NCBI GenBank assembly: GCA_032718475.1
Contig: JAUCBJ010006851.1
Span: 1 to 64,000 of the forward strand
Direction of reading: 5' to 3'
DNA length: 64,000 nt
Source: Nemertoderma westbladi
Taxonomy: Eukaryota > Animalia > Xenacoelomorpha
Made by a program: the position numbers and the translations under genes. Shown piece by piece: positions 13,844 through 50,617 of the stretch. The notes beneath the pieces are model-generated. The model was not told the origin of the DNA. It worked only from the letters and a program-made list of their open reading frames with translations, and ran no database searches. How positions within the stretch are numbered: position 1 is the stretch's first letter; the number at the start of each line of letters is the position of its first letter.

Positions 13844-13999
13844 TTAGGCTAGCGGGCGTCGCTGCCTACCTCTCGTTGCCCCCGGACAGTGGGATTCTCA
13901 GCGCCGATGTACCGTCGTCGCGGTGTTTACGCCAACATGTAGCAACAGCACGACAACGATAACCGGCACAAGTCACTCCACTGTCCGTCCCAAAGGCTT
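13844..13999 (-). ncRNA. Conserved structured cis-RNA module, copy A
   Basis: About 80% identical by eye to 50453-50617. Forms a long stem-loop plus a 3' hairpin, with G-U pairs on the minus strand. Confidence 0.7.
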
Positions 14000-14621
14000 G
14001 GATCCACTTTAGGTTCTTTCTATAGGAGAGTTGGGCTACTTTTACAATTGCGACTAGCTACTGTAAACATACTTTAGCAGTAACATTCACCTATAAACGC
14101 ACAAATTCCAACACAACTGTCACCAATTGTACACATACAGGCCATTTGTCCGTTAGTCAGTGCCTTCCAGAATGTCACGTTATTACTGTGTATCCTTGGA
14201 TACTAACAGTGTGCTATGTATTCTCTGTGCTATGCAATGGGACAAGCTTTCTATTGTTCTTTTAACTTGCTTCTAATTCTATCGTGGGTGTTGCTATGGT
14301 GACATTATGGAAAGCTAGCGGTAGAATTAGGGTAATTCTCATGCATACAGATCTGGGATGCTATTTAATAGTAATTCTTTAATTGTCAATATCCTCTTTA
14401 TACATGATTTTATTAATTTTGTCGGCTATTGACTATATGTCGGAGATTCTTGCACTCTAATACCCTCAAGAGGATGAATCTCCGCTCCCATGATCTATTA
14501 ATTAATGGAATTTTGGGAATGTTATAAATTGCACAAAATGACAATTTATGAAATTCATTTAAGATATGAATTTAAATTTATTCCCGTGAATTTTATTATT
14601 TGATGGTAAAATTGACACAAT

Positions 14622-14893
14622 TTTATTCCAGAGCATGTCTGGGGACCTAGGATCCTTAATTCTATAAAATTGTCTTTTAAGAGTATCGGTAAGCGCTGCG
14701 ATATCTTAATTGACTAGAAATTTTAAAGGATCTGAATTTCACAGATTTTAATAAATATTAAATTAATATTTAAGATAGGCACCGATTTATTCCAGAACTT
14801 GTCTGGGGACGTTAACCACTGATTCTAGAATTTGTCTTTCAAGTATATCGGTGGGTGCCGCGATATCTTAATCGACTAGAATTACAGATGGTC
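14622..14893. repeat. Two diverged copies of a ~110-nt hairpin module (14622-14733; 14786-14893)
   Basis: Shared tttattccaga..gtctggggac..ttgtcttt..tatcggt..gcgatatcttaat.gactagaa, with stems preserved. Confidence 0.75.
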
Positions 14894-15422
14894 AAAAGGT
14901 TTAACAGATTTATTTGCGTTTTACACTACTGTTATAGGGACATCACGCTACTATATGTATTATTTAATATAAAGTAGAAGAGCAATATCGCACGAAGCAA
15001 TGTCAGTGTGAAGAGGCAAGTCGTTTCCAAGGTCTACCCAGAGCTTGGTTTAGCCGAGACACGAGGATCTGAACTTTGCATTCCTAATACTCTGCCTACC
15101 GATAATACTTAAATATAGTAGGAGCTTTATTGTACTTTAATAAGTACTGACATGTCATCTTACATGTAGTCTCGTATTTATAATATAATACGGACAGTAA
15201 GGAACAAGAAAGAATTATTTCTCGCCGTCATATTAAATATATATTATGTGTAATTACGTAATAAACACTAATATATTGCACTAACCTACTAAATAATCTA
15301 AAATAACATTCTACTAAATAAAATTAAATAAAACGATTATAATAAAATACATAACAACGTTCGCATATAAAATATAATAAAAATAGATAGAATAATATAG
15401 TCATGCACCCACTCCAGACGTA

Positions 15423-18400
15423 TCACGTTGGGGAGTCCCTAGATGTTTGAGGAATTAGGGAGGTGGTCGTGGGAAGAGTGTCTTGTCTTCCATAGTTTCT
15501 GGAGAGTTCTCTGTCTCTTTCCAGTAAACATAAACGACCCACTGGGCGGTTGAGCTGTTGCGTCTCAAAGATTATGCCTGGCTTCTTGAAGTTACGTCGC
15601 ATGACGACGAGTTCTACCGAGCGCACTAAACCATCATCCGAGATGTGAGTCTCGATGATACGACCTGTCTGCCACCGTTTACGTGGAAGGTCTGAATCTA
15701 CAATAAGCACCATATCTCCGGCGCTGACGTTTTCTTGCTGCGCAAACCACTTAGTTCGAAGTTGTAGCGTGGGCAGGTAATGTTTCTCGAAATGGTCAGC
15801 GAAACGACGGGATAGCAACTGCATAAGTTGCCAAGTTCGACGGCAGTATTCGTCTCCGTCGGTAATCTCCGATCGTGGGAGCATGGCTACAGGTTTCTTC
15901 AGTAGAAAGTGCGCGGGTGTTAGCGCTTCCAGGGAATCGGGACTCGATGAGACTGGCATAAGCGGTCTCTCGTTGAGATAGGCAGCTATTTCCTCCATTA
16001 ACGTCCGCAAAAGTTCGTCGGTGAGATACGCGCGGCATGGCACTATAAAGTGAAATGCGGTCTTGACACTTCTAATTAATCTCTCCCAACTTCCTCCCCA
16101 CCAAGGGGCGTCGGCGGTGTTGAAGGTCCAGCTAGACGCTGTTATCCTTACCTGATCGTCCACCTGTCTTTGGTTCCAGTCCTTCACGTAAGCCTGGATT
16201 TCGTTGTTGGCACCAATGAAGTTCGTTCCCTTATCCGATCTCATGGTATTACTAGTCCCGAAGCGAGCGATCTGTCGGCATAAACTTAAGACGAAGCTGT
16301 TGGTAGATAGATCGTTCACCATATCGAGATGGATGGCTCTACAAGTCATGCATACAAAGATGACACACCATCTCTTGACTATAGTCCTAGCACGATATAC
16401 TTCAATAGGGCCAAATAAATCTACACCAGTATTAGTAAAAGGTGGTTCATAGAAGCTTACTCGTTCCCTAGGTAATTCTGCCTCTCGCTGTGTTAAAGGC
16501 CTACTGAATGCTTTCCTACAGGGTATGCAGTTCCTAAGAACTTGGTTCAGAGCTCTACGGGGTTTATAAAAATAATAGCGAGTTCGGATTTCGCTAAGAA
16601 CTCGTTCTCTACCAGCATGATAAAGTTTACTGTGAACATCTACAATCATCTTGATTTGTACTTCAAGATTTCTAATGAGTATGGGGAATTTAGTGTCAAA
16701 GGATAATGGCGCATTGGTGAGTCTTCCTCCAACACGTATTAACCCATCTATCATTGTGCTAGAGAAGCGATCCCTTAAGCTCATCTGCGGATTTCTCAAC
16801 AACAGGAAATACTTATCGGAATCCTCATAGCATTGCAGGAGTCTCAGTATCTGCTTATTGGTTTCTTCATGCTCCTGATAACTGATTTTTTCCTTTAGGA
16901 ACCGGTCGGATGTCTTATATTTGGGTAAATTTTTAATAACATGAACTTGCGCAGATGTCAATGGAACGATATCACTAATGGTCTTCGTCCTGGAGTAGTG
17001 ATGATGAAAACATCGCCTTAAATATGTGACGGCTTTACAGAGCCGATTCCAGGAACTGTAGTGATGCATTGCTCTCTGCAGCAGGGGTGAGATTCCTTGC
17101 GAGACGTCTGGTATTCCAGATTTCCAATCTATCTATTCCTATCTCTAATTTCCACAACAGACTTATTTGTGGCGAGGGATTGTGGATCCGAAGCATCATT
17201 TCCGGAAGTATGTAATACAGATAGATCGATCGCAGGTTTAAATAACTTCGATTTACTCGCCCGGGTTTTAGGTTTGACTTTCTCCGCTCCCTTGGCTTGT
17301 CTAATCTCCGCCGTAGTAAGGTGAGGAGGCCATTCATCCTCTTCCTTGCTCAGGAAGTCGGGTCCACCCAACCAGTCTGGAGTATCTATCAGTTCCTGTG
17401 GAGTCGCTCCCCTGGAGGCGATATCGGCTGGATTAATCGTACCAGGGCAATGTCTCCATTGATCTATCTTTGTGCGACTAAGAATAATAGCTACCCTGTT
17501 AGTAACAAAAACGCTGAACTGACAGACTTCATTGGTTATATACTCCAACACGAGTAAAGCGTCGGTCCAATAAACAGTTTTCTCCAGTGGATAGTCGATT
17601 TGTTCTGTCATGTTCCGGCCGATGGCTGTAGCGTATAAAGCCGCTTTTAACTCCGCTCGAGGAACCTTTAACTTGTTGTTAATCAATGCCTTAGAGGTAA
17701 CCAAGGCGACTTTGATTCCATCCGGAGTTTCGACTGGCAGATATGCTACTATACCTATTCCCATGTCGCTGGCGTCTCCAAACACGTGGAGTTGATAGGA
17801 ATACGTAGGGAGAACATGACCAAAATATGCACGGGAAATTACAAAGCTCTCGATGGCAGGTAGAGAATCTTCCCATTTCATCCACTTCTTTAACAGTTCT
17901 CCCTTAAGTGGATCGTCCCATGAGTGGTTTTCAAGCCACATTTGTTGTACTAAACTCCGAGCAATCAATATAACTGGGCTAATAAATCCCAATGGGTCGA
18001 AATAAGTGCTCAGGATACTTAAACAAATCCGTTTGGTCCGAACTGGATTATCTCGCTGTTTTAGCTGAAAAAACAGGATATCTCTTTCTGTGTCCCACTT
18101 CAAGCCAAGCGTCTTGGTTTCTGGAAGATCGTCCTTTATTAAGTCTAGGTCTTTCGTTCCTCGGTCTTCTACCGGTATCGCTTCCAGAAACTTACGGGAG
18201 TTGCTAGTGAATTTCGTCAGTCGAAATCCACCTCTTTTCAAACACTCTACCGTTCCTTTCGCGACATCAATGGCTTCTTCTACTGATGGAAGGGACTTTA
18301 AATTGTCGTCCATGTATATATCGCGCTTGATGTTGTCTATCACCTCTTTGGAGAAGGCGTCTCGGTTGTCATTCGCAGTGGTCCGCACCACGGAGCAGGC

Positions 18401-21400
18401 GTTGGAAGGGCTTGATATGATCCCGAAGGCCTGGATGGTCATCCAGTACTCTACCGGTTTCTGGTTGAGATCTCCTTCAGGCCACCACAGAAATCTTAGG
18501 ATGTCTCTATCTCTATCCTGCGCTTTAACTTGTAAGAACATTCATTCTATATCGGAGGCGAACGCGATGGAATATTGTCTTAATCTTAAAAGTATTCCCA
18601 ACAAAGATTGGAGTAAGTTGGGTCCTGGTAACAACTCGGAATTGAGGGATTGGCCCATATATAGAGCGGAGCCATCGAATACGACTCGTACTTCATGGGG
18701 TTTACCGGGTTTGGGAACGTAATGATGTGTTAAGTAATACGTTCTCTCAGTTACTGGTGTTCCTTCCGGTACTCGCTCCGCGTATCCCTTTGTAATGCAT
18801 TTCTTCAACTGAGTTTGGTACATCTCTTTAGCTGAAGCATTAGCCGTAAGGCGTCGATGTAATTGAGTGATTCTTTTCTCTGCCAAGGGTCTGTTATTTA
18901 TAAATCTAGGTTCTCGTTTTCGAAATGGTAGGCCGATTTCATATCTACCTTGATCTTTTAAAAAACGTGTAGTTGTTTCCTGGATTTGCTTGGCTCTTTC
19001 TTCTTCTATCGATAGGGCCTTATCGTATGAATTGGGCTCTACCAATTCTTGAGTAAAGAATTGTACGGCGAGTTCGTCCCGAGTTCTAGCGTTGTAGCGC
19101 TCTATTTCATCATTTAGTTCGTCATTGTAATCAATGGGTCCCGATGGGCGAATCAGTTGACATAGGTTCACCTGGTTTTTCCAAGTTTTGTTTTCTGTAA
19201 GTAGGTCGATCGTGTTCTCTTCATCGAAGAGTTGGTAGATGTCGTCATTATCTGAGGAGTATGGTGTTCCCTCAGTTAGTTCGTCCACCTCACTGCTCTC
19301 CACTTCCCAATCATTTACTTGGTATATTCGTTCTTGTGGTAATCTCTCTTGGAGAGTTCTGCGGGAAGGGCCAGTAAAGTACCAACCTACTCTAGTTCTT
19401 ACCGCATAGGTTTGTAGTGGCTGCGGTTGAGCAGGCCGTTTCTCCAATGTCTCGAGCGCCTCATGCGCGTTTTGGCCGATGAGTATTTGCACTCCAGGAT
19501 AATCTGTCTGGAATCGAGGTATTTTAAGCTGTTGGATGCTCTCGTCCTCGTCCCAGTTATAAGGTTCTACTTGGGTAGTAGCGAAGTTCTTTATAGCTAC
19601 CATTTTTACCGACCTTATACCTTGTGCTCCTAATTTATCCTGGGGGGTGGACAACGCACCTACATAGTAATCTGCCGTTAGGGTAGATTTCCAAACCTGC
19701 ATAATTCCGGACATATTCAACTTAGTTTGGAATTTGGGTGGTCCAGCAAAGATATCTTCGGCTAGTTCTTGATCGATGAATGTTCCTGTGCTGCCGGAGT
19801 CAAGGAGGGCGTTCACTATGTAACTTTTGTTAGGACCGTGAACTCTTACCTGCACTACAGGAAATTCTCTGATTCCTACGTTGGAAGTTGGATCTTTCCA
19901 AGATGGTTGTTTGTCAAAAGTAGTTGGGGGGAACTCATTGTCTGTGTCCTCTTCGTAAGTAAGTGCTCGATATACTGCGGTATTTATTAGGTAACAGGAT
20001 TCGTTGGCGTCGGAGAATTCGTCAGTATAGAATCCTTCCATCTCAGACTCTTGATCAGTGTCATTTACATCACTGAATTGGACATGTAGTTCGGGCTCAC
20101 TTACCTGACTCGGGTTGTTTCGTTCGAATTCACTGTGTAACAAGATGTGATGTTTCGCACCGCACTTTGCACACTTTACGTCGGAGTAACAGGTTCGCCG
20201 TTGGTGTCCTGGTCTGAGGCAATTATAGCATAACCGCTTATCCCACATGACTTCACGTCTGTCTACTAGGGATTTCTTTAGGAATTCAGCACACGCACTC
20301 AAACGGTGGGGCCCGTCGCACAGCGCACAGTTTGGTTTGATGTTACTCACTTTACCTTGGGTAACTTGATGCACTCTCGTTCTTTCTTCGGGCTTTCTTC
20401 CGTGCATTCTGTTAGGAGACTGAGGAGGAGTCTTGGCAACCTGTTCTCTCCTATCATTGGTTCGAGCCTTGTATTTACTTACGTCTTTTGAGGTTTTGTT
20501 AACGTAGTAAAATCTGTCAATGTCTTTTCCGCTGTCCTCTTCTTGAGAAGCTTGGCTTTTGCCGTCGTCAGTGTAACACACTGGTGTTACTCTTCTCCTA
20601 GAAACGGGTTTCTCACTTACCTTATTTTCCGATGTTTTCTCTCTGGACTGCTTGATGAGTTGTAGTTTTACTTCACCATCTAAGAAGGACATGAGATCAG
20701 CCATGGTAGGGCCTCGTCGTTGCTGCTCATTCATATACAACACTTTCTTATCCCAGCGTGTACATACTCCACCCTTTGGTAAAGTAGAGACTACTGCTCC
20801 AATAACCATGGAACTCTGATATTCATGAGACTTACCTAACCAGTCCAATTGTCTACAGATCTCCTGAATCTCATCGGAAAACTCTATAATCCCGCTACTA
20901 AGGAACTTTCGGGGGGCTACTAATTTTGCATACAAATACTTAGCTATGTTATCCTTGTTACCATACCTGATGTTTAATGTATCCCAAACTTGTCTTAATC
21001 CATCTGGATGTCCAATAAACTTTAACGCCATTAACTTGGGAGGTCCTTCCAAGCACTTGATGAGGAATCTAAGTTTCTCTCCGTTAGATAGTACAGAGTT
21101 CTGTATGCTATCTTTGTAATATTCATTAAAAGGTAACCATTTCATCTCATCTCCATTGAATTTGACGATTTCTCCCACTTTGACCGCTTGGCGGGCTTCT
21201 GTTCTAGCCATCTGACGCGTAAAGCTTTCTTGGGCCATCGTGTTATTTAATATCGAATTATCGGTATATAAATTTCTCGGATTATTATCAGGTCTATAGG
21301 GAATATCATTAACAACAGGTTTATAATCACCCTTAATAGGGTTTGCTATAGGAGTTTCTACTTCACTAGCAGTATAGATGCGTGTAGGCTCCACACCTTG

Positions 21401-23426
21401 CGCATGTAATACTTCAGACCTAACAGGTTGACACAATGTTACAGGGGGTATTGGTATACCCTTTTGTATATTGACTAATTTGTCGCGTTCCAGCGCGATA
21501 CTTTGCTGCACTTCTTGCAATTCTACCCTACTTTCCCTTACTGTTCCCTTGAGTTGGTGGACAGTCCCTTCTAAATCTCGGATCTGCTGTGAGGAACATT
21601 CTCGGTGCTCTCTCAGCTGCCCGAGCAAGAGACCCATCTCCCGCCGTCCCTCATCAACCCACTCGACCGCCGAAGCGGGAGTCGCCAACATTGTAGCGGG
21701 CCGACGCGGGACGACGGGAAACAAATCTTTGATTTCTCTGGGTCTCTAGCACAGGAGTGGCTTTGGGAACGACAGGCCTAATTATTTCAGGCCCATCAAC
21801 TATCGTAGGGAGTCTTTTGACCTTAATAATTTGGTCTGTGGGTTCTGTACTACCTAAGTCTGTGCTAGCTAGTTGTCTTCTAACCGCTGGGGGCAAATCA
21901 GGCAATTTGTGACGGTGAGATGTTTTTCTACGCCTGCTTAGACGAGATCTATTTCCTCCGCCTTCAGGATCGGTGGTCTCGCCTTCCTCCGATGATGTGT
22001 ATCCTTGGCGCTTGGGAGTAGATCGACTCCTCATCTGCATTTGACTAGCAGTTAACTGTTTATTTATGCAGTCTTGCGTCTCTTGCAGATATTCCAACTC
22101 CAGTTGGGTAGTCTCCTCAGACGCTCTCCGTTCTGCTTCTGCCACTGCCTTTGCTGCCTTTCTTTCCGCTTCTGCTTCTGCCATTGCCGCAGCTACTGCC
22201 TTTCTTTTCGCTTCTGCTTTTGCCATTGCCGTGGAAACTGCTGCTGCCTTTCGGTCCTCTATCCGTTTTTTCTTTACTTGTTCTTCTTGGACTCTAGCGA
22301 GGCGGAGTTTTTCATCAAATTTAGCTTGGTTTGCAGCTAACATTTCCGCATCGATTGAGTCCAATACAAGCTTGGCTCCTTCACTATTGGGGCGAAGTCC
22401 AGCCAGTCGTCTCCTCAACTCTTCATCACCTAGGAAACGTTGATAGTCTGACAGATAGATGTCTATGGCGTCTCTCGTTCGCAGTCTCTCTGCGGTCACT
22501 TCGCTTTCCACTTGAGAGAAGGTGGCATCGGTTGATTCTTCATAGGTTGGTCGCTCAGCCAGCTGGTATTTCCACTGGGCCGTTTCTTGAACTTTGAGAC
22601 CTATCCGCTGGAACCAAGTCTTGACAGCAACTTGCAGCGACATGTCCTGTCTTCTTTTGGAAGTTTCCTCAAAGGCTGATAGGATTAATCTAATGCGTAG
22701 GGTTCTTTCGCGTACTTGATAAAGCAGCTCTTCCTGCTCTTGAGGTCCTTGGGGTTGTCGAAACAGTTGTTCTTCTAATCGCTCTAAGGAGCTGAAGAAT
22801 CCCTGCACATATCCTGCTGCCGACCTCTTCCAAACAGCTGGATCCATCGTATCTTTAGTCACTCCCATCCTGTGTATGTCTTCCCAGGTAGCTTCAGATA
22901 AGTCTAACGGGGATCCGGGTCCGGGAAAGTTCCATTGTGACTCGACAATAGACATCAATTCTTCCCTGGCGTATCCCGCATAACTATCTTGGGTCGCTCG
23001 CTTACTTCTCGCCCAATCGACTTGGTGTTCCTCCACCGCAATCAATATCGTTATCAGTACTGCGGCAGGAAGGGTGAGAAGGGGATCCGAATAGGCTGTA
23101 GCCGCCATCTTCACTCCGCGTTCGGGGGTCAGCTCTACAGTATCCGAACTACTGGAGCTATCGGGTCGCTGGGAACGAGTTTCTTGACTAGGATGTTGCT
23201 GCTGTTGGACAGCTGCTTCTTGGTTCCGTTTGACCTGGGCCCGAGTGCCGATGATAGACCTACGGTGTTGGATTAGCCTAGGGTCTGATACTACTACTGG
23301 AGGGATGACTTTTCTTTCAGTAGGAGGTGAGCTGAACCCCTTTCTTAATCGCTCCACCCTCCTATCTGTGTCACAGATGGTTGTATCGATTAGGCTGTCT
23401 GACAGGTTTTGCCTAGTGTCAGACAT
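15423..23426 (-). pseudogene. gag-pol: E1 gag-pol polyprotein (coiled-coil N-terminus, Gag with Zn knuckles, PR, RT, RNase H, IN), disrupted
   Basis: Motifs CYNCLRPGHQRRTC, LLDSGS, YMDD, HVFGDAS and GVDLFGP/SDKGTNF/WERLI. Frameshifts near 21700 and 17130, and an in-frame TGA at 18542. Confidence 0.93.
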
Positions 23427-24776
23427 GCTTAGCTATACAGTTGAATGCTTACTGCTATAGTTACAGTTAAAGCAAGTCCAGTAATTCAGTATGACCGTTG
23501 GCCTAGTACCGGTAATTTATTACAGTATATTAGAATACCGGTATACACTTATAGTATATATAAGTATTGTAGACTAGGTTTGTCGCAGAATACCGGTATA
23601 TAATTTTAGCACAAATATATATAAATATATAATAGGCCTATCGTGAATACCGGTATGCAGCTTACACTTATAGTATATATAAGTATAATTATGGACTAGA
23701 ATTAATTACAGAATACCGGTATAATTTCAGCCTAAATTTATAGAAACAAAGATAATAGGTCTATCGTAAATACCGGTATATCAATTATTTAAATAACTGA
23801 ATTTCTGAAATTTAAAGGTTACTTAGTTACTTTAACTTACTTTATTACCATTATTTAAGCAGTAGTCCAACTGATATTGAGACCTAATTGTTGTATGGCA
23901 GGCCTACTCGCTTATAAACCTTTGAGTTGATTTATAATAGATATATATATGTATATACCCGTATGAGGGGTTTTGTTACAATATTGAAATAGATGTTACT
24001 ATTTCTGGGGGGAGTCACTACACAGAAGCTGTGCGCTCTCAGTGAAGTGCTACTTATTGGACACTAAAACAGATAATTCTACTTCCTAAGTTACTTATCT
24101 ACGAATTACTTACGATACGGGTGAGATTAATTCTCTAACTAAACACAACAAAATATTACGTACGAAATTTTAGGGTAATTTTACAGGAAGTCTACAAACC
24201 AGCCTAACAAAGGGTTAGAATTCTGGTTATTACAACGGACAGGGTATTACGGTATTTGAAAATAATAAGTAGTAGTAAATATGTTGCGCTGTCCAGATAG
24301 TTAAAATACCACCGTCTGACGACCTATAGCCGTATCGCTATAGGTACTAAATTATGTATCACGGAGTGTTCCTACCTGGAAGTTAATTACCGCGGACTAC
24401 CAGATCCAACGTGCCTATTAACCACTTTACAACACAATACACTGCCTACACACTAATTACTTTCGGAAAGCACTGTACACCAAACCCTAAATTAGGTACA
24501 AGTACTTATTAAAACAGATAACTAGCAGTTAAATATACTTGAACAGTTAAAAGAACCACGGCATCTGCTGGAGTGACCGGAGCACAAAGTCACCAGTGTT
24601 TACCTACGCCAAGCAGCCCGTGTAGTACCGGGGTTAATTTAACTATAACGGTATGTGTAACAAGCACAATTACTGTAGGAATAAACTTGGGGACATGAAT
24701 GTTGCGAATAATAGCATAAACTCTGAATAATAAATATTACGCTACCCGTACAGACTACTCAAACAAAATACAAACC

Positions 24777-25300
24777 AAACGCTGGCAGACTACCATCAAG
24801 CCTAAATAAACTACAGTATGTGCAGATTCCGAAATGGTTAGTTAGTATGCGTTCTAACACGGTAGTACGACTTATTCTTTAAGAGGGGATTGACCTTACA
24901 ACTCAAGATGCCCCAACTTACTAACTGGCACTTTATCAGACAAACTCTACACACGCAGCAATCTCTTCAGACCTAATAATAGCTAGACAACAATCCAGCC
25001 TACAAAATATCTGAGTAATAACTATTACGGTACCTGAACAGACCACACAAACAAACACAGGCTAAAACGCTGGCAGACTACTATCAAGCCTAAATAAACT
25101 ACAGTATATGCAGATTCCGAAATGGTTAGTTAGTATGCGTTCTAATACAGTAGTACGACTTATTTTTTAAGAGGGGATTGACCTTACAACTCAAGATGCC
25201 CCAACTTACTAACTGGCACTTTATCGGACAGACTCTACACACGCCGCAATCTCTCAAGACCCAACAACAGCCCGACAACAGTCCAGCCTACAATTATCTG
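24777..25300. repeat. ~290-bp tandem duplication in the E1 5' leader, with 33-bp repeats at 25478-25605
   Basis: aaacgctggcagacta..atcaagcctaaataaact occurs at ~24777 and ~25066. Confidence 0.9.
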
Positions 25301-25666
25301 AACAATCTGCGCAGACTTACACGTCTTCTGCTCAATATTAACTTACATGTAAATAAAACCGACAGAAATAAGTAAAATCTCAATAAAAAACCAGGGCGGC
25401 CTTTCCCTGATTAAGTACTAAGACCTACCGGTATACAATAATCAAAATCGAATAATACTAATGTACTTATACTGGAAGTACCGGTTAGGACAGTTGGGCC
25501 TACAGACCTACAGCAGTACCGATTCAGGCAGTTAGGCCTACGGACCTACAGCAGTACCGGTTCAAGCAGTTGGGCCTACAGACCTACAGCAGTACCGGTT
25601 CAGGTTTACCGGTCGACCGGTACTTTCAACTTTATTGCTTACTGCAATAAAGAAAATAACTGTTAT

Positions 25667-26853
25667 TGTACGCGCTTTTGAAGACCTTTAGCAGTTTAAC
25701 CTGCCAAAATTTATATGTCTTTTGGTTTATAAATAGACTTTAGCATATGACAAGTATTTAATACCAATAAACACATATTAGCCGAAGCCAGCCTAGTGCG
25801 CGTCCATTCACCCGCTGGATATACCCGGGAGACTGGATTCGGATGGGCTTAGATTTTTATTGCAGTGTAAGCTTACGGTATTATTCGATTGATCGTTAAT
25901 AAATAATCTCAGACGAATATTATTCACTTTCGGGAAATATTAACAGTTCCTTTAGGACGTGGCGCTCTATCTAGGTAAACAGAGATATGACTTATACTAA
26001 ACACAACGGTAAGACGGTAAGGCTTATGATTCACGTATGAGGCGCATTCTTTAGGAAATGCTTAGTTATCAGCCACAATCATGCACACTACCGGTACCGC
26101 ACAATACTGCACACCAATCTGCCGACCGTCAATGAATTTTATCATACATAAAGAGAACAGCAATTGCCTCATGTAGTGCCTATCTAATAGCATTAAATTC
26201 ACTACAAACCACGATAATATAAGTCGCAATCGCTATATGTAACCTGTCTCTCTAACCTGTAGTGTATCAAGAAAATTGGGAAATTTGGGTTATTTATCGA
26301 TGTTCTCCAAGTAATAATATTCAACCAACTGATACAAATATTGACAGCAGTAAATAGCAGTATAATAATGTATGTTGCACTGAACTGTATGCTGTAAGAC
26401 TGAACTGATTGGGTTGATAACAGTTATACGTTCTATAATCTAAGCCTACTAATGTTTCTTCTAAAGTCTGAAATCAATTGACTCCAGAGCCGGTGTTCTT
26501 GGCCTAGATAGAAACAACACAACTCAAAACTAAAAAACAGTAAGACAGAACACTCCTAGCACGATCTGTAGAATATCTCCACGTCGACAGTAAAAATCGC
26601 CCTGATTGGCTGTTAAGCTGAACAAAGAACCATGTGTCCAACGGCCGTTTCCATGCCAGCAACCAGCTGTTAGATGTCGTAATCTGAATCATCAAGGCTA
26701 CACTGTGCTAGAGGATTTGACGCATTGCGGGTTTTGTGCCTTGCCATGTCCGCCAAAGCACACATATAGAAGAATGACTTTTATGTCCGTTAAAACACCT
26801 ACAACGGTACTTGGCGGGCAAGGGGACTGATTATATCCGCAAAAGCTTTTACA
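25667..26853 (-). repeat. E1 5' LTR
   Basis: Direct repeat of 10945-12131. Confidence 0.97.
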
Positions 26854-27574
26854 TCTCTTTTAATTTTCGAGTTATCGCTGTCTGTCCGTCTGTCTCGTTT
26901 TGGTCTGTCTGTTAGAAGACTGACATTAGCAATAAATTTACCGACCACGAAAACCCCCACAGAGAAATTTTTATCTATATTGTGCGAATTATTCTATTTT
27001 GACGGACAGACCGACCGACTGACAAACTGGCTCACAGACAGACATCAGATAGTCAGTTAGAAGACTAGATTTTCCAAAAAATTGAAAACTGACATCAGAA
27101 ATATCAGTATCATCAGTATTATTTTGGTCTGGTATCCTTCCGCATAGGCAGACTTACTTTATCATATATTCTTTCATATTCACGCATAAATAATTGGAGG
27201 GAAGGTTTAAAATTTAAAGGCCATTATCGGAATTACATTTTTTCACACAAAAAACACTATCCTCCGCAATTTCATAACCTTTTTTTGTGATTTTTGATTT
27301 TTATGAAAGGAAATTTAATAAGCTTTAATAATTCTTCGGCCACTTTTTTTGATTTCAGAATATTTCCGCATTTTTTTAAAAAGAAAAACCATAAAAAACC
27401 GTAAATTTTTTTCAATTTTTAAAAAATTTGAATTTTTTTTTACAAAATTACCAATTATCAGATATAGAAAATAAAAATAAAAAAAGTGTCCGAAGAATAT
27501 GATGAAATTTAACATGCTGGTTCTCAAAAATGTGGTATCGTGGTAATGTGGAATCTAAAAATGTGGTAATGGTG

Positions 27575-29420
27575 AAAAATATCGAGACTTGAAAAATATC
27601 GAGACTTGAATAATATCGAGAGTAAAAATAACGAGAGTAAAAATATCGAGAGTAAAAATAACGAGTGTTGAAAATTAACGTGATTAAAAAATATCGAGAG
27701 TAAAAATAACACGAGATGAAAAATATCGAAAATAACGAGTGTTGAAAAATATCGAGTGTTGAAAAATATCGAGTGTAAAAATATCGAATGTTGAAAAATA
27801 TCGAGAGTAAAAATATCGAGTGTTGAAAAATATCGAGAGTAAAAATATCGAGTGTTGAAAAATATCGAGAGTAAAAATATCGAGTGTTGAAAAATATCGA
27901 GTGTTGAAAAATATCGAGAGTAAAAATATCGAGTGTTGAAAAATATCGAGTGTTGAAAAATATCGAGAGTAAAAATATCGAGAGTAAAAATATCGAGTGT
28001 TGAAAAATATCGAGAGTAAAAATATCGAGAGTAAAAATATCGAGTGTTGAAAAATATCGAGTGTTGAAAAATATCGAGTGTTGAAAAATATCGAGAGTAA
28101 AAATATTGCATTTTACTTGAGCATTTTATTTAGAATTATGGAACAATATTGCAGTGCATGGGTTACAACAGTGCAAGTGAATGGCATTATGTAATACACC
28201 TTGGGTACCCATTTACCAGATTTATTATACTAGCTAGGTTTTGCTATTTTTTTAATAAATATTATAAAAGAAGTGCTAGCTATAAATTTTGATAAATATT
28301 ATAAATTATTGTTAAATATTATATTTGAACACGTACCTTATAAGCTACCAAATGTTGATAAATATTATTGTTCTAGAACATTTTTAGTAAAAAAATTATC
28401 ATACAACCCTTATTTAAAAAAATTGTTACTATCAATATTTTTACTCTCGATATTTTTCAACACTCGATATTTTTACTCTCGATATTTTTCAACACTCGAT
28501 ATTTTTCAACACTCGATATTTTTCAACACTCGATATTTTTCAACTCTCGATATTTTTACTCTCGATATTTTTCAACACTCGATATTTTTACTCTCGATAT
28601 TTTTCAACACTCGATATTTTTACTCTCGATATTTTTCAACACTCGATATTTTTCAACACTCGATATTTTTCAACACTCGATATTTTTCAACTCTCGATAT
28701 TTTTACTCTCGATATTTTTCAACACTCGATATTTTTACTCTCGATATTTTTCAACACTCGATATTTTTACTCTCGATATTTTTCAACACTCGATATTTTT
28801 ACTCTCGATATTTTTCAACACTCGATATTTTTACTCTCGATATTTTTACTCTCGATATTTTTCAACACTCGGTATTTTTCAACACTCGATATTTTTCAAC
28901 ACTCGATATTTTTCAACACTCGATATTTTTCAACACTCGATATTTTTCAACTCTCGATATTTTTACTCTCGATATTTTTCAACACTCGATATTTTTACTC
29001 TCGATATTTTTCAACACTCGATATTTTTACTCTCGATATTTTTCAACACTCGATATTTTTACTCTCGATATTTTTCAACACTCGATATTTTTACTCTCGA
29101 TATTTTTACTCTCGATATTTTTCAACACTCGATATTTTTACTCTCGATATTTTTCAACACTCGATATTTTTACTCTCGATATTTTTCAACACTCGATATT
29201 TTTACTCTCGATATTTTTCAACACTCGATATTTTTACTCTCGATATTTTTACTCTCGATATTTTTCAACACTCGGTATTTTTACTCTCGATATTTTTACC
29301 CTCGATATTTTTACTCTCGATATTTTTTGAACTCTCGATATTATCGTTATTTTTCAACACTCGATGTTTTTACTCGCGTTATTTTTACTCTCGATATTTT
29401 TCATGTCTCGATATTTTTCA
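27575..29420. repeat. Inverted pair of satellite arrays (15- and 17-bp units aaaaatatcgagagt / aaaaatatcgagtgttg) with a ~330-bp spacer
   Basis: Array 27575-28105 and its reverse complement 28435-29420. Confidence 0.92.
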
Positions 29421-29938
29421 ATATAACCAAAAATGTGGTCGTTTTGGCGTAATCTTACGTTAATCTTACGGTAATCTTGCGTACCTAATCTTACGCCAGC
29501 CGCTATGGGGCGCTAAAAAAATTTTTTTTTCACATTTTTATTTACTATAGTTCATTCTCTATTCGATGGTATATAGCTTTCTGCGCATTTTTCAACCATA
29601 TTGGAGATATAAACAAATTAAAAAAAACACCAGGGGGGTCCCCCCCCCCCCACTTAACTTTAGGAATCCTGTCAATACAATGCAGAAATTAGCTGTACCG
29701 GTATACCTACTGCAGTAACCTAGTATTAAGGTTTGTTGATCATACCAGGATACCGGTAGGCAAAACTGAAAGAAGTTTGGAATAGACAGTGTGTTCTCAT
29801 TTTTGATGTAGTGTACTAGGACTTCAAGTCAGTCAGTCAGCCAGTCTCTTGTCGATTTAGTTGGTGTAGACACCATCAAAACTGGATTATTTTAAATATC
29901 ACAATAATATAAATAATATTATAAATAATAATCAACAG

Positions 29939-32712: not shown

Positions 32713-34562
32713 CCGCTCCCTAAAAAAATATTTATAAATTATTTATAAACAAAAAGGAAACTGGTGGTACAATCAAATAGCATGTAATCCCTTCACCAAT
32801 ATGACACACGTAAATAATTATATTGGTAACACAATACGTTATTAATAATTGTTGTAAACTACTATATTTGTGACTATCACATACTAAACTATTAATTATT
32901 TACGTAGTTGTAGTTAAGTATATATGGTGTATACATTTTGAGTTGGAACTCAAATTAATTAACTATCAGTAAGGGAAAATAAACTAACATAGGCATTTAA
33001 TTTACTTATTGCACCGTTATTACAACAACAACAAAAATTTCTAAAAACTTACGATTGAGTATGATTAACTCGAAATGAAATACTTAGTACTTGCTGGCTC
33101 CCATTTAGGCAAGGTTTCTCTAGGTAATGTTTGCTGAATATGCTGATCCAGTAAACACTATAGCCTGCGTTCTCGGGGGAGTTCGGAGGCGGCTTCAGTT
33201 CGCGCTCCTCCGCTCCAACTCCCTCTGTTTGCGTGGTGGCCGGCGTCCCTGGAGGGCGCTGGGCTTTGGGGATGGTGCGGGTCTGCGGGGGAATGACCTC
33301 GCAGACCATTATTAATTCACGGTGCACCATTTTTAATTGTTGTTAAATTTTATTGTCTTAATTGTTTTGTTCTGATTGGTGGTGGGATGCTGGTGCAGTT
33401 TTATATTTAATTTTGGTTTTATGGATATTATATATTTATGATGTAAACACTATTGCACTATATGTATAACTTAATATATATTCTTAGAATAATAACATGA
33501 TTAATATAATGGACTTTCTGAATAAAACTATATTACCGCAAGTAAAGTTATCATATCAAAGAAATTATCAACAAACCAAGTATTAACAATATAAACATTT
33601 CAACGCCAAATTAATCAAACTTCTGAAATTCAAATAGACACCGTTTTCGGGGACTGACTCCTGAAGGTCATTCACCCAGTGTTTTTCCCGTCTGCAGGCA
33701 ATTACCAAGGAAAGGTTGAGATAATTATTTGGTTCACCGGTAAGATAGATAACGAGTCGCCCATCACGTCACGCAGATCCGATCCGTCTAGGATATATAG
33801 GTCTAGCATCGGTCCAACGAAACATCTTTGTCCCAGGACGTCTGTGGTTCCGTAGTCTAGGTAAATAGCCGTTGCTGTGGGGAGTCAAATGGAGTATTCC
33901 AACGTTGGCGATAAGGCAATTAGTCCCTCACCCACCGTTCGATTCCCCCCAATAATAATAAACACATAGAGATAGCCTGGATTTTTCCTATATTATTATT
34001 ATGTTATATAGTATCACACTGTTTCATAATCAAAATCAATCCAATCAGGCGATTACCTCTTAAAATGTAAAAGTAATCAAATTGGTGATAACATAAATTC
34101 ACCAAACTGAAACCAAGAGGAAGAATAACTTCAGAGATTAATTATTTTTTAATTAACCAAACAGTTTTAGTTATAATAAATGTTATTTTTATTTTTTAAA
34201 CACTCCGACCCTCCTTCGGTCTAAAATGTATTTTATTAAGTCATTAAATTTTTCTAGAATTACTTTTGAAAGTTGGTCATTAATTAAAAATTTTATTGTT
34301 AACTATAAATTCAACAAATCTCAATAAATTTAAATAAATTTAAATTTATTACCGGAATTATGTTTATATGTCTCTATGTATGTCATATTTTGTTCTAATT
34401 CATGCGCTAGTTTCTTAGATCAGATAAATATGAACATCATACGATCTATTCATACTAAACATACAACGCATTATAATACACACATTCTTTGCTATATTAA
34501 ATCGGTTATCTGTATACAGTTTCAGTTAATAAGTAGAATCATTAAAGTTATTAACATGGCGT

Positions 34563-44115: not shown

Positions 44116-44704
44116 ATCAAGGGTAACTGTCCCCTCCATATCTCCATGTCGCATGACTTATTTGGGTCTGAGAGGTTTGGGGTTTTTGTTCTTGGCTGCG
44201 TGTATTGCTGATACTGCAATGGGGGAATGTCACCCTGCCCCCCCTCCCCCCCACCGGTGTTATGTTTGGTACTGGGGTTGATGTTATCATGTTGGGGCCC
44301 ATGCACCTATCGGCAATACCTCCCCCCTCCCCTGGGTATATATTATATCCCTGCATGTTATAGTCTATCTTTCCCAGCATGGCCTATAGTATGTGCAGTA
44401 AGGCCTACAGTATGTCCTGCAGTCTGCCTGTGTCCTTCCAGACCGAAGTTTAATCTTCTCGAATATTCCGAGAAGTCCTCCCTGTGACTACCATATTCTC
44501 GATCGGCAGCTATGTTCCGACGGGAAGTTTCTCTCCAGTCCCCTCTCCTGTTTTCATCCTCGTACCGGTACACTCTGCACCCCTCCCTCGGTGTGTGGTA
44601 TATTTTACCAGGTTGTGTTTATCCGGTGTGACAGCAATCTCCTGGAGTACGACCCCACCGGTTCTCTTTCTCCATCTCGACTACTGATGGTTCTCTATCC
44701 GTCA

Positions 44705-45200
44705 TTCCCCTCCGGTTGCTCGTAGCAACACTTCCTCCTCGCCTTGTCCGATTCCAGTGTAGTGTCCTCCCTCGTGCGATCTCGCTTCGACCTCCCAGAT
44801 AAACTCCACTGTTCTCCTTCCGTCTTCCGACTGGGCTCAATGTCTTCTCGCTCGCCCGCTCACGGCGCCAACGTCTCTCCCTCTGCCTGGTTGGATGGCC
44901 CTGGGGATATTCGCAGTCCCCCTACTATCCTCTGTCGTCGGGCGACTATCCGTCCTTCCCCTCCGGTTGCTCGTAGCAACACTTCCTCCTTGTCTCCTCG
45001 CCTCGTCCGATTCCAGTATAGTGTCCTCCCTCGTGAGATCTCGCTTCGACCTCCCGGATAAACTCCACTGTTCTCCTTCTGTCTTCCGACTGGGCTCAAT
45101 GTCTTCTCGCTCGCCCGCTCACGGCGCCAACGTCTCTCCCTCTGCCTGGTTGGATGGCCCTGGGGATATTCGCAGTCCCCCTACTATCCTCTGTCGTCGG
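44705..45200. repeat. ~255-bp tandem duplication in the E4 remnant
   Basis: cctccc.gataaactccactg occurs at 44791 and 45050. Confidence 0.9.
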
Positions 45201-45922
45201 GTGCCATGGCTCACGTAACTCACCACGCACATTACCCGTCGATGGTCATGGGACATTCTCTGCCCCCCCCCCTCTCGCCCTCCGTCGGGTGCCACGGTTC
45301 ACTCAACTCACCGCGTACATTACCCGTCGGCACTCGTGGGACATTCTCTGCCTCCCCCCCCCCCCCATTCACCATTAATCGCTTGTGGTGGGGTGCCCGC
45401 AGCCCCCCCCCCCCATCCGTCACCTCTTACTTCGCCCCCCACGCTCCCCTCTAGTCGACGCGTTATTTCTACCCTCATTGGGTTTATTCACCCCCGCTAC
45501 TCTCTGCTGAACTGCGTAGCCTTGCAGGCTCTCATTGGGCAGATCGCTTGTTATTGGGATCGGAAATAAATGAATACCAGCTGCATCAGTTTATTAATGG
45601 TCGACATACAGAACAGCATATCAAACAATAATATGAACCAACAGACCAACGAACACACCCACCACCTTACAGCACATCAGTACAGCAGTACAGTAGGTAC
45701 CGGTAATGGTTACTGTACCTACAGACCTAGAAGATAGGAAAGACTGAATACCGGAATACCAGAAGAGGACCGGTAGGTAAAAGACCAGTAGGTTTGATCT
45801 AACCACCACCAAGCCAGGGTCTACTAGAGCCCTAACAATACATAATCTAACATCTCCCCCAAGAACAATGTAGGAGACATTTGTACTGAAAAAAAAAATC
45901 CAACCACCACCAATAGGTCAGT

Positions 45923-48900
45923 TCATTGAACTCCGAATCTTGCTGGTTGCTTGTGAGTTCTCGAACAGCGCCTGGGAAGATCATCAGCAAACTGTACCTG
46001 TTTTTGAGGCGTTATGTCACGAAGAGAAGAGTCATCTGGGATGGAACGCAGATAACGACGATTTCTCCAATACACCCGACCATTGTCTAGTTCTATCCTG
46101 TAATCTCGCCTAGTACCACGGGAAAGGACGATACCAGATTTGTTCCATAGTTTGGAATGTGCACTCTGGATGCAAACTCGGGAACCAATAGGAATCGGGG
46201 TTAAGTCGTGAGCATGATCATTATAATATGATTCAGTTGCTGAAGACGTTGAAGGACCAGGGATAGGGAATGAATCACCTACCAGTGTGGACGAATGAGC
46301 TGGTATAGTGGAACGGAGGGATCTACCGAACAACAGTTGAGCTGGAGACATACCATGTTCTTTAGGAGTATTTCTCCATTCCAGCAAACCACGAACAAAG
46401 CAAGTAGAGTTTAGATCTCCTTTGATATCTAACTTTTTTATCAATGATTTCATGGCCTTTACAGCCCCCTCTGCATGGCCATTAGACTGAGGATACTCAG
46501 GAGTAGAATACTCAGGGATGATATTCCATTCGGATAAGAAATCATGATAACGTGCTGAATTAAATTGTGTACCACCATCAGAACGAAGGCGTTTTGGAAT
46601 ACCAAAATCTTTGAACCATCCTCGAAGAGCTGAAATAACTTGAGTGCTGGAAGGATCAGCACGCCAAGAATAAACGCATGGCCACCCAGAATATCTATCG
46701 ACATAAACCAGGTATGACCAGGTGCTGAAGTAGAAGAGATCAGCAGAGCAATCCTCCATTGGAAGACATGGATGAGGGTCGCTTTGGAGAGACTCTTTAG
46801 GTAAACTTGGTTGATAAAGTTGACACTGGGGACAAGAATTGACTATGTTTGTAATATCGCTATTGATACCAGGCCAGAATACAGTTTGCCTAGCTCTCCT
46901 CTTAGAACGTTCAATGCCCTGATGAGCATCATGAAGGTGCTTCAGGACATTCTTGCGGAGGGAAGATGGAATTACAATCCGGGAACCTAATAAAAGAAGA
47001 TTATCTTCACAAGATAACTGATGTCGCACATTCCAGAATGGGCGTATGTGCACAGAACATTGTGTGGATGTTGAGGGAAATCCAGAAATAACAGCATCCA
47101 CCAAAGCCATGTAAGAAATATCATCCTTTGCAGATGATCGGATAGACTCAATATATGAATCCTTGAGATGACTTGGAGCATCAGAGACAACAATTGAGGT
47201 AGACACGTGACGAATGACTGCAGAAACATGGTCATTGACATCTGTATCACAAAGAATATCCTCTGGAGTAGGATCCGAAACAGGGGCACGGGAAAGTGCG
47301 TCTGGAATGGAATGTTCACTTCCCTTTCTCCATGTTGTATTGAAGAAATAAAGGCTGAGTTTCTCTTTAAGACGTTGGATTCAGGGATTGTCTATCATAT
47401 CCAAAGTATAATTGTTTAGGATAGGAAGAAGAGGTTTATGATCAATTACCAACTCGAATGATGGGAGACCCATAAGATACACCTTACACTTCCTAGTAGC
47501 CCATACGACGGCTAACAGTTCAAGCTCTATCATTGCATAACGTGATTCAGTGTCAGTGATGAATCTTGAACCGCACTGAATGAGTTTCCAAAAGCTGTCG
47601 TGTTTCTGAAGAAGTGAGAAACCAAGACCCTTCAAACGTGAAGCATCTGTCTGCAACATTGTAGGCAGCAATGGATCATATGGAGCTAGAATTGGAGGAC
47701 TTACAAGAGCTTTCTTAACTGCTTGAAATGAAGTTTCTTGGGGTTCTGACCAACAGAAGACATTTTTAACTTTAAGAAGGTCCCGAAGAGGGCCTGCCTT
47801 TTCGCTAATAGAGGAAGTGAACTCACCTAGTTGGTTCACAAGACCCAAGAAAGATCTAAGTTCAGAAATGTTGGTCGGAACAGGAAAGTCAGCAATGGCA
47901 TTAAGTTTGGAAGGATTTGCTTGAATACCATTACTACTAATTATATATCCTGCGAAGCACACCTCAGGGGTAGCTAATTTGAATTTCGCAGCTTTGAGAC
48001 TGATCTGGTGTTCACGACACCGATCTAGAACGGCAATAATATGTGCGAGATGACTGTGACCATCGGAAGAATGAATTAGAATGTCATCAACTACTTTAGC
48101 AATGCCATCCAATCCCTGTAAAGCTATATCACCACGAAGACAAAACACATCTTGTGCTGAAGTTAATCCCATGGGATTCCTAAGAAACTTGAATCGACCC
48201 CAAGGGGAAATGAATGTTGTTAAATTCTGACTGGATTCATCAAGAGGTATCTGCCAATATCCATCGTTGGCATCTAATGAAGAAAAGAAGCAATCTGATG
48301 GAGAAATCGAATTGACAGCCTCACGAGGAGTAACCGATGGATGATATGGACGTTTAACATGTTTGTTTAGTATAGTCAAATCAACACAAAGGCACCAACC
48401 GCCTGTTGGTTTAGGAACTACAACAAGAGGATGGACCCAATCAGTTGGTTCGTTATCCAGAACTGGACAAATAATACCTTGTTCAACCATTTTCTCTAAG
48501 CGAGCTTTAGCCCAGTCTCTAATGGCTAAAGGAAGTTGCCTGGCTGTATGAATAGCATATGGTTGGGCATCATCTTTTAATGAAATGGTCATGGGTGGGC
48601 CATTCATTGGACGAAGTTTGTCATCTTGGTCAAAAACATCAGAATAAGCCTTTATGAGTTTCTGCTTAACAGTATCCAATTCTGAAGGCGAAGGTTCATC
48701 AGAAAGATGGAAGTCAACCTTGAATGATGTTGTTGGAATTGAGTTTTTAATACCAATAGGTGACATATTAGAAGAATTAGAAGAAGCAACAGACTGAATT
48801 TCTGCCACTGGTTCTGGATATGAACTTGAAATAATTCCTAGGTTTTGACAAGTATACCATGCCAAAAGAATTCCATCGACTTCTTCACAAATGCAGATGA

Positions 48901-49174
48901 GCTCATCAGTTGAATATTCGCCATAGGAAATTGTGGTGTGGAGGAGACCAATGCATGAAAGAAGACTACCATTAGCAGCAGAAAGATCTTCATGGTCTAG
49001 TGGAAGTAAATTTTCTTTGTCAATAGAAAGGGCCTGAAGAAAATCTAAGCCGGCAACAGTGGCCTCAGCACCAGTATCTGGAGTTGCTTTAAGAGAACCG
49101 AATAAATGTCCTGTTGCGATATGACAGAAGTTCAGAAATACTTTCGGAGCTTGTCGATTATGGCTTCCAACCAA
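45923..49174 (-). pseudogene. pol: E5 pol (PR, RT, RNase H, IN) with one in-frame TGA at 47381
   Basis: Motifs DTGA, VVDD, TDAS, H-H-C-C, SDGGTQF and PQSNGHAE. The two ORFs are in the same frame. Confidence 0.93.
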
Positions 49175-50253
49175 ATTGAGGGTGATGCGGCTAATGGGTT
49201 TTGTCTTGGAGATTTTGAAGATGAATTCGAATTATTTTGTTTAGACCGACAAACATTGGCAAAGTGGCCTTCCTTGCCACAATAAGAACAATCTTTGTTC
49301 CTTGCTGGACAGTCAGCGCGTTTATGGTCTGTTTTACCACAACCATAACAAACTATAGGGCCAGTAGTTGAAGAATTGTTTCTGGAATTGGATTTAGAAG
49401 AATTGTTGCGCCTGGAATTATAAGGCTTTTTGTTGTGAAAACGAGATTGTCGAGAAGCTTGGTTGATTGAAGGGTTTTTTAAATCCTGAACTCCAGCTTG
49501 GGCTGATTCCTCAGACCTACAAAGATTTACAGCATCTTCAAGCGATGGAAATGGAGTCAATGCAAGAAGTTTAGATCTGGTGTCCTCGCAAGAAATACCA
49601 GACATAATTCGAGTAGTCAACCGCCGATCGAAACAATGACGACATAGATCAGCATCTCGAGCAAGATCTTTAATAGCAACCAGGTAGCTATCAAAATTTT
49701 CACTTTGACATTGTTTCCTATTATCAAAATGAACACAATCAAGGGCTATATTCCGTTTACCACGAAAATAACTTTGAATACAATCTATTAACACCTGAAC
49801 TGTTAAAGGATTATCATGTGTGTCAGGAGGAATGTCAATAACTTGTTCCAGTGTAGAGCGCATACCTATAGAAAGGTAACTCCTGAAAATACAGATTTGC
49901 CTATCCCTAGCCATTCTATCCATCTGAAATGCAGAATAATAATCCGCCCAAACCGACTTCCAAGTTTCAAATTTTGCTAAACTGAAATCCGGTTCTAAAG
50001 CAATTGGTGCTTTAATTTGAAGATTACGAGGGGTTGAGTCAGCCTGATGAACTACAGGTTGATGTGGTTGACCAAGTAATTGTTGAAATTGATGGGCATT
50101 TTGGGCTTGGGATTGTGCTAAGGAATCAGCCAAATCGCGTTGTGATTTAACTAAAGCATGTAGAAGAGCTGAGGTGGGATCAGGATTACCACGACCAGCC
50201 AACTGTTCTCTTAAAACCTCCAGTTCAGTTTCGAGTTCAGCTTTAGTAGGCAT
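49132..50253 (-). CDS. gag: E5 gag with two CCHC knuckles
   Basis: Motifs CYGCGKTDHKRADC and CSYCGKEGHFANVC. Confidence 0.92.
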   Translation of the reverse strand: MPTKAELETELEVLREQLAGRGNPDPTSALLHALVKSQRDLADSLAQSQAQNAHQFQQLLGQPHQPVVHQADSTPRNLQIKAPIALEPDFSLAKFETWKSVWADYYSAFQMDRMARDRQICIFRSYLSIGMRSTLEQVIDIPPDTHDNPLTVQVLIDCIQSYFRGKRNIALDCVHFDNRKQCQSENFDSYLVAIKDLARDADLCRHCFDRRLTTRIMSGISCEDTRSKLLALTPFPSLEDAVNLCRSEESAQAGVQDLKNPSINQASRQSRFHNKKPYNSRRNNSSKSNSRNNSSTTGPIVCYGCGKTDHKRADCPARNKDCSYCGKEGHFANVCRSKQNNSNSSSKSPRQNPLAASPSIWLEAIIDKLRKYF

Positions 50254-50452
50254 ATCTGACTGTTGAATATTAGAGAAATTTCAGGAAATTAAATATCCGA
50301 AAAAATTTGAAAAATCCAAAAAGAAAAAATTTTGCAAAAATGTGCAAAACTTTTGCACGCAAATCAGCCCAAATCTGTAGTTATCGAATACTGACAGACT
50401 GGAATACCGCCTGACTGCTGAATGTGAATTGAATAGGTACCGGTAGTTATAA

Positions 50453-50617
50453 TTAGGCTAGCGGGCGTCGCTGCCTACCCCTCACGGCCCCCGGACAGCG
50501 CAAGGTCCTCAGCGCCGATGTAGGCTACCGTCGTCGCTGTGTTTTGCGCCAACGTAGTAGCTACACAACGACAACGATAACCAGCGCGAGTCACTCCACT
50601 GTCCGTCCCAAGGGCTT
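50453..50617 (-). ncRNA. Conserved structured cis-RNA module, copy B (E5 5' leader)
   Basis: Homologous to 13844-13999 with pairing-compatible changes. Confidence 0.7.

Follow-up and report, generated by a model that had tools for sequence, protein, structure and literature searches.

The 64-kb window analysed here (the whole stretch of DNA) is made up of stacked LTR retrotransposons, which lie on the minus strand. It raises the question of how one non-coding module came to lie in two elements of different superfamilies, and what the module does in each of them. The original prediction placed a structured RNA between pol and ORF3 of a BEL/Pao element (E1) and in the leader of a Ty3/Gypsy element (E5).

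Two copies of one module in elements of two superfamilies

A blastn comparison of the window with itself aligned 13838-13999 with 50447-50617 at 83.0% identity over 171 columns (E 5.5e-42), and 142 of 173 columns were identical in the alignment of the two module copies. The likeness of the E5 copy to the E1 copy faded at 50447. The module was the sole long sequence common to E1 and E5; their flanks gave no long match, as had been proposed. Beyond the module, the E5 leader and LTR had only 12-mers in common with the E1 leader and nothing with the rest of the E1 3' region. A third copy was found in the 64-kb window neither by blastn nor by a covariance model built on the two copies. The features are as follows.

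10945..26853, minus strand: E1, a complete BEL/Pao element with LTRs of about 1.19 kb, a 5-bp target-site duplication (TSD) and gag-pol in four pieces.
13844..13999, minus strand: module, very probably the native copy, in E1 (blastn, fold, depth).
45552..51096, minus strand: E5, a complete Ty3/Gypsy element with 301-nt LTRs, a 5-bp TSD, PBS from 50795 and gag from 50253.
50453..50617, minus strand: module, very probably a captured copy, in the leader of E5 (blastn, fold, depth).

The 5-bp TSDs enclosed both elements as wholes, and the LTR pairs were 99.2% (E1) and 98.7% (E5) identical by blastn. The Pfam domains of E1 (DUF1759, Peptidase_A17, Integrase_H2C2 and DUF5641) were those of BEL/Pao elements, and the domains of E5 (zf-CCHC, RVT_1, RT_RNaseH and rve) stood in the Ty3/Gypsy order. 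Locus searches found no related loci for the E1 integrase or the E5 RT.

Both copies were in the sense of their element, E1 and E5 both lying on the minus strand. E1 is 15.9 kb long; its pol stop lies 1.4 kb before the module. In E5 the PBS starts 178 nt before the module. The next AUG downstream was in each case the start of an ORF, as first described: ORF3 in E1, 41 nt away, and gag in E5, 199 nt away. Three AUGs lay between the PBS and the module of E5, where upstream AUGs had been noticed, and 21 lay between pol and the module of E1. The E1 copy also held one AUG within the module, at 13938.

Predicted structure of the module

Folding of the minus (sense) strand gave energies of -84.3 and -77.5 kcal/mol for the two copies, with z scores of -4.84 and -4.86, and none of 200 shuffles was as good. 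The z scores of the plus strand were -0.56 and -1.04. This asymmetry results from G-U pairs, and it argues for an RNA over a DNA inverted repeat. The blastn match, the Pfam domains and the z scores agreed on a structured RNA that is common to two LTR superfamilies and folds strand-specifically.

All four helices of the original prediction were predicted again in both copies, on the minus strand only. The modelled fold is bigger than the earlier one, in which an outer helix (P0) was missed. Its predicted order is P0, an asymmetric loop, P1, a GA-rich internal loop, the P2-P3 rod, the apical loop and P4.

50477..50615, minus strand: P0, predicted outer 6-bp helix, 50615-50610 with 50482-50477 (in E1, 13997-13992 with 13873-13868).
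50492..50605, minus strand: predicted P1 (9 bp), GA-rich internal loop and P2-P3 rod (in E1, 13987-13883).
50547..50553, minus strand: apical 7-mer GUUGGCG (in E1, 13936-13930).
50455..50476, minus strand: P4, predicted 3' hairpin with the loop ACGCC (in E1, 13867-13846).

The pair probabilities of P0 were only 0.3-0.6, and one of its pairs was C-G in E5 and U-A in E1, a two-sided change. P4 directly adjoins P0; its letters were identical in the E1 and E5 copies, in line with the invariant 3' hairpin first described. The P2-P3 rod is about 28 bp long with many G-U pairs, and the P1-P3 region had energies of -61.7 and -58.1 kcal/mol. A local folding scan (12 shuffles per window) gave further windows with z < -4 in E1 and E5, so that a low z alone was not unique to the module; the lowest energies of the scan were those of the module. 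It is highly probable that the module folds as modelled.

The apical GGCG was complementary to the P4 loop in both copies, which makes a loop-loop pair a predicted feature of the fold. Holding the apical GGCG open costs about 3-4 kcal/mol, and a 4-nt complement to the P4 loop occurs in 8 of the 158 7-mers of the module. Two arms, of 28 and 24 bp, extend from the GA-rich loop, and a closed, bent domain is geometrically plausible on this model: P0 would stack on P4, the GA-rich loop would bend the rod back, and the apical GGCG would pair with the P4 loop and so close the domain. The loop-loop pair may form, although we lean slightly towards its absence. A kink-turn has a 3-nt bulge followed by tandem G-A/A-G pairs; by eye on the alignment, E5 fitted this pattern and E1 had an A for G at the second non-bulged position. 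The module had no 11-mer complement elsewhere in the RNA of E1 or E5, and no tRNA gene was found.

A compact fold might also be that of a self-cleaving ribozyme or other catalytic RNA, and CUGANGA did occur once on the E5 sense strand. The hammerhead core consists of CUGANGA and GAAA; CUGANGA was present in one of the two copies, E1 being without it, and GAAA in neither, on both strands. The hammerhead was rejected. At E up to 10, no Rfam match fell on the module, whether the whole window or 301-nt stretches were searched, which also bears out the statement that the module belongs to no recognised family. A catalytic role is scarcely credible on these results.

Sequence variation within the module

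All 54 pairs of the model hold in E1 and E5, two of them through two-sided and four through one-sided changes. The pair score of the two copies was matched by 122 of 500 shuffles, and the structure itself was derived from those two copies. Further variation was taken from genomic contigs of four runs (at most three samples), which gave at least 40 variant rows; the 35 in or beside the module were used. It was seen mostly among BEL subfamilies and says nothing on selection inside the Gypsy family.

Thirteen of the variants listed fell in stems. Among these, 10 still paired with the partner letter of E5, 11 did so when any listed allele of the partner was allowed, and two broke the pair or had an unknown partner; on the opposite strand 4 of the 13 would keep pairing. 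The significance of pair-keeping was P 0.13 under a transitions-only null and 0.009 at 70% transitions. Variable sites made up 13 of 102 paired against 14 of 62 unpaired positions (P 0.13). Two further two-sided changes appear to be phased on single contigs, to judge from depth sums in X4; with the two between E1 and E5, the total comes to four. None of the variants listed fell in P4 or in the lower seven pairs of P1. The apical 7-mer was likewise free of listed variants, while sites next to it vary, and the four predicted loop-loop pairs never varied. The fold is well backed by energy and consistent with the variation; covariation is statistically not established.

Origin and probable capture of the module

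The depths given here are summed contig depths, not copy numbers. On E5 the module was far deeper than its flanks in all four runs (in X1, 34,000-609,000 against 500-2,000), a difference of about a hundredfold as an order of magnitude in genomic contigs. On E1 there was no depth step: the module bins in X1 reached 0.54-1.19 million against 0.12-1.99 million over all bins, and all 30 bins from 13250 to 14750 were deep. Record 26 of X4 covered 13668-14076, including the module and both E1 flanks, at about 84% identity to E1. Contigs that ran on into unlike sequence in X4 amounted to 55% on E5 and 6% on E1, and among the loose ends listed at the edges of the E5 module, most looked like E1 flanks. 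The module is diverse and deep in its BEL context and uniform and shallow in its Gypsy context, from which we infer that it passed from BEL to Gypsy. Both the origin and the direction are very probable: the module would be native to an abundant, diverse BEL family and captured by Gypsy. The original prediction had called the module portable and exchanged between superfamilies. Its presence in both BEL/Pao and Gypsy was upheld, but a free, portable module was not; the depth points to a native BEL part that moved one way into one Gypsy family.

An independent short mobile element (SINE, MITE or Helitron derivative) inserted in both E1 and E5 could likewise account for the very high depth over the module on E5, and contexts beyond the loose ends listed are possible. 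Yet the depth on E1 passes over the module ends without a step, neither copy has an A-tail, box B motif, terminal inverted repeat or clear TSD, and the folding is strand-specific, unlike that of a DNA inverted repeat. An ordinary SINE or MITE is largely refuted by these results and very improbable.

It appears that a small young Gypsy family captured the module once, from one BEL subfamily, and multiplied afterwards. Contigs bridged the E5 junction on the gag side at the depth of the E5 family (X1 records 2 and 3, 175+426 against 495-558); at the PBS side a contig of flank depth entered the module by 26 nt, below the 31-nt requirement. Record 18 of X3 carried the 5-nt insertion of E5 with a non-E5 flank (109 nt, six differences, no gap). 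One capture end was located 2 nt beyond P0, the other no more than 8 nt from P4. Breakpoints at the fold ends could result from selection for an intact fold or from a polymerase that pauses at the bases of helices; pausing of reverse transcriptase there could set them without selection. A predicted compact RNA domain, native to an abundant BEL/Pao family, was likely copied whole into the Gypsy leader, and a double template switch would have done so. Capture by template switching in LTR elements, with double switching as its route, is documented in the accessible text of PMC5131818.

Two further observations concern X4. The E5 leader beside the module had no cover and the LTR was covered, a hole that proves nothing. 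The module and the ORF3 start were deeper than the upstream spacer, a feature that was absent in X1-X3 and was given no weight.

ORF3 and a BEL relative without the module

The ORF downstream of the module in E1 has a homologue in a second BEL element of the window, E6.

12209..13802, minus strand: E1 ORF3, in four pieces in the E1 copy, with zinc knuckles and a basic C-terminal tail.
53963..55435, minus strand: E6 ORF3 homologue, 490 aa, with three zinc knuckles of CCHC type, after pol.

One piece of E1 ORF3 was 27% identical to the 490-aa ORF of E6 (E 4e-17), and the tails were basic in both. No hydrophobic segment was found (peak 19-residue hydropathy 0.96 in the four E1 pieces and 0.83 in E6); with zinc knuckles in place of the signal peptide and transmembrane segment that mark an env-like third gene, ORF3 was ruled out as an Env. 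A word search gave no ORF3 homologue, and an exhaustive search gave two matches, both confined to the knuckle region. By sequence, ORF3 is without close relatives in the databases searched. Its weak look-alikes in the Atlas were multi-knuckle nucleic-acid binders (0.87), a lead only. The module was absent from E6, which gave no alignment and no covariance-model score, and the region before its ORF3 folded weakly (z -1.25). ORF3 can therefore exist without the module.

The module might serve the unspliced genomic RNA as a signal for export or for packaging/dimerisation, to which the zinc-knuckle ORF3 protein would bind in a Rev/RRE-like manner. The protein would suit such a role, with its three CCHC-type knuckles (in E6), its basic tail and the lack of a membrane segment, and the Atlas look-alikes point the same way. 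The E5 module sits just after the PBS, where packaging signals lie, and acceptor-like CAGs (described below) would keep the module on unspliced RNA only. A kissing interaction is needed by the musD RNA transport element (MTE) according to the portion of PMC5767303 that was available. E6, however, encodes ORF3 without a module, and no conserved palindrome was found in a loop. We regard such a signal as unlikely, together with the idea that the Gypsy family acquired the module in order to exploit the abundant BEL protein or an export pathway of the host.

Possible role in translation

Three points favour a role in translation: in both hosts an ORF follows the module, 21 (E1) and three (E5) AUGs lie upstream of it, and the rod should stop scanning, yet the Gypsy family that carries it spread. 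A rod of about -60 kcal/mol located 200 nt ahead of gag should halt scanning ribosomes. In E1 the module would allow the zinc-knuckle ORF3 to be made although 21 AUGs come after pol and ahead of the module. In E5 the 60-kcal rod would block scanning unless ribosomes were recruited or the rod was spliced out. That the module helps ribosomes start at the next AUG in both elements is our preferred but tentative reading, which we consider somewhat more probable than any one of its rivals and still less likely than not. Counter to it, the spacing to the AUG differs fivefold (41 against 199 nt), and the BEL relative E6 carries an ORF3 homologue but lacks the module. Little weight attaches to the AUG-free spacer, because the E1 gag leader, a module-free control, was AUG-free over its last 199 nt (P0 0.026 against 0.024). 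Candidate splice acceptors (CAG) were found 2-9 nt upstream of each AUG (12-16 pyrimidines in 25 nt). The letters that E1 and E5 share immediately ahead of these AUGs also occur before an ORF of E3 that has no module.

In a ribosome shunt of the pararetrovirus type, a short ORF ends 5-10 nt before a large stem. From the stop of the nearest upstream ORF to the stem the distance was 59 nt in E5 and 22 nt in E1, in a check that covered all three E5 and the last 4 of the 21 E1 upstream AUGs, and this mechanism was rejected. IRES activity is reported for gypsy, VL30 and LINE-1, and few retroelement IRESs are listed in the accessible part of PMC10974842. IRES assays give false positives from cryptic promoters and splicing, according to excerpts of PMC2657110.

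It is also possible, though we think it unlikely, that the module works only in the BEL family and is a passenger in Gypsy: the young family would have picked it up once from an RNA of very high abundance, would tolerate it through splicing or bypass, and would have carried it along while spreading. The donor BEL family is far more abundant, and LTR elements are known to capture partial RNAs (PMC5131818, in part). The E5-like record of X3 with its non-E5 flank suggests that differences between E1 and E5 may predate the capture, and a T-rich stretch and CAG stand immediately before the E5 gag. On the other hand, both breakpoints lie at fold ends, a 60-kcal rod in the leader should be costly, and the junction at family depth means that the carrier lineage multiplied. 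A passenger in Gypsy would still leave a new BEL RNA structure and a clear capture across superfamilies.

Should the module prove active in the leader of the Gypsy element, it would show that LTR superfamilies pass on non-coding control modules, much as RNA viruses do with IRESs, and it would add a short element with a new fold to the known IRESs or export elements. The fullest reading, in which the zinc-knuckle accessory gene would be driven by a new compact hinge-and-kiss RNA domain (an IRES or a protein target) that Gypsy hijacked in working order, is improbable in our estimate; if true, a non-coding module would have been exchanged in functional form between LTR superfamilies of a single genome. 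The 160-nt domain, its natural variants, the second host element and the module-free relative together offer a direct test of downstream-gene expression.

Comparison with known systems

Exact module patterns gave no match in viral contigs (three patterns) or in metagenome contigs. A gapped hairpin pattern gave one match in prokaryote genomes and 11 in viral contigs; these 12 loci were dismissed as chance, scoring at most 18.5 bits by the covariance model against 185-203 for the true copies. The literature searched, in full text with few subscription papers, held, among the papers listed, no account of the module or of any non-coding structure transferred from BEL to Gypsy, and none of a cis-acting RNA or a zinc-knuckle third gene for BEL/Pao. 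The module is real and its structure is new; very probably BEL is its native setting and Gypsy captured it.

In the case of Harvey sarcoma virus, donor and recipient are both retrovirus-like, and an internal entry signal was reportedly found in VL30 (Berlioz 1995). The VL30 segment in that virus is likewise a retrotransposon piece recombined into the leader of another LTR element, as described in the parts available of PMC9450689 and PMC2657110. Here, by contrast, the piece is one predicted fold, which very probably came from the spacer between pol and ORF3 of a BEL/Pao element and entered the leader of a Gypsy element. LTR-mediated retroposition likewise places a foreign internal segment between intact LTRs and spreads it in later cycles (PMC5131818, accessible text); in E5, unlike there, the captured piece is a non-coding RNA of the other LTR superfamily and the recipient retains gag and pol.

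IRESs have been transferred between virus families, and those of type 4 (HCV-like) and type 6 (IGR) are likewise self-contained folds before unrelated ORFs (PMC7354566 and bioRxiv 2024.04.17.590008, both in excerpt). Small type 6 IRESs, given as 120-260 nt in the excerpts, are similar in size to the module. Unlike these IRESs, the module is a rod and a hairpin with at most one loop-loop pair against three pseudoknots, has an AUG start at a variable distance, resides in a retrotransposon and has no Rfam match. Membership in type 6 was rejected: two or three nested pseudoknots are needed (bioRxiv 2024.04.17.590008, in excerpt), and the module has one 4-bp loop-loop candidate.

The MTE is likewise a structured cis-acting RNA in an LTR element, and in HIV the RRE is an RNA element coupled with an accessory protein, Rev, as the sources describe in the parts at hand. 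Unlike both, the module is a rod and not multi-branched, its accessory protein is of the zinc-knuckle kind, and no sequence or Rfam match links them. By the features compared, the module is a member of none of the VL30 segment, the viral IRESs and the musD element.

The replication of BEL/Pao elements is described as poorly understood (PMC8742986). E1 follows the plan of the Belpaoviridae, LTR-gag-pol-(third gene)-LTR, for which the family profile gives only env-like third genes, genomes of 4.2-10 kb and an 18-nt tRNA PBS (PMC8742986); env-like third genes are also the only ones mentioned in the accessible part of PMC3118150. E1 departs from this profile in its 15.9 kb, in its third ORF for a soluble zinc-knuckle protein and in having no TGG-type PBS after the LTR. 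BEL/Pao elements infect metazoans (PMC8742986), and the nearest named RT matches in our searches were from aquatic invertebrates, at 47-50%.

Primer-binding sites, leaders and LTRs of the elements

No TGG-type primer-binding site was found behind the 5' LTR of the BEL elements E1 (25666-25630, minus strand) or E3 (43513-43470, minus strand), and in both the LTR was continued by ATAA. A TGG-type site was present in the Gypsy element E5. The RNA module provides no explanation for the priming of these BEL elements because E3 does not contain it. The E1 leader was 2.2 kb long with only six AUGs, and about 300 nt of it were duplicated internally, at 24750-25360.

The palindrome TACCGGTA occurred at 18 sites in the window, from 11367 to 50942; most of these fell in an LTR or leader of E1, E3 or E5. 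It is possibly a shared host-factor site.

Third ORF of the BEL elements

The features of this region were as follows.

53963-55435, minus strand: third ORF (ORF3) of the BEL element E6
12209-13802, minus strand: third ORF of E1
55701-55333, minus strand: 122-codon ORF in a different frame, overlapping the start of E6 ORF3

Zinc knuckles, three of them in E6, and a basic tail characterised this type of ORF, for which database searches returned no close relative. The third ORF is lineage-specific and is not Env. The 122-codon ORF may be an upstream ORF, or its overlap may reflect either programmed frameshifting or a break.

Other folds and repeats in the window

Additional features were observed as listed here.

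33120-33400: stretch of E3 with high GC content and strong predicted folding, within its 3' non-coding part
52990-53060, minus strand: tRNA-like stretch, spotted by eye
27560-29280: 15/17-nt unit in two oppositely oriented arrays, forming a large inverted repeat
4541-6400: tandem array of a 30-nt unit, about 49 or more units, inside a 546-codon ORF
1000-2250: tandem array with a 44-nt unit

In a folding scan with 12 shuffles, the E3 stretch reached z-scores of −7.4 on the plus strand and −5.9 on the minus strand; it was unrelated to the module. The tRNA-like stretch, for which neither ARAGORN nor Rfam gave a call, is perhaps a tRNA-derived SINE. The inverted repeat of the two arrays was foldback-like.
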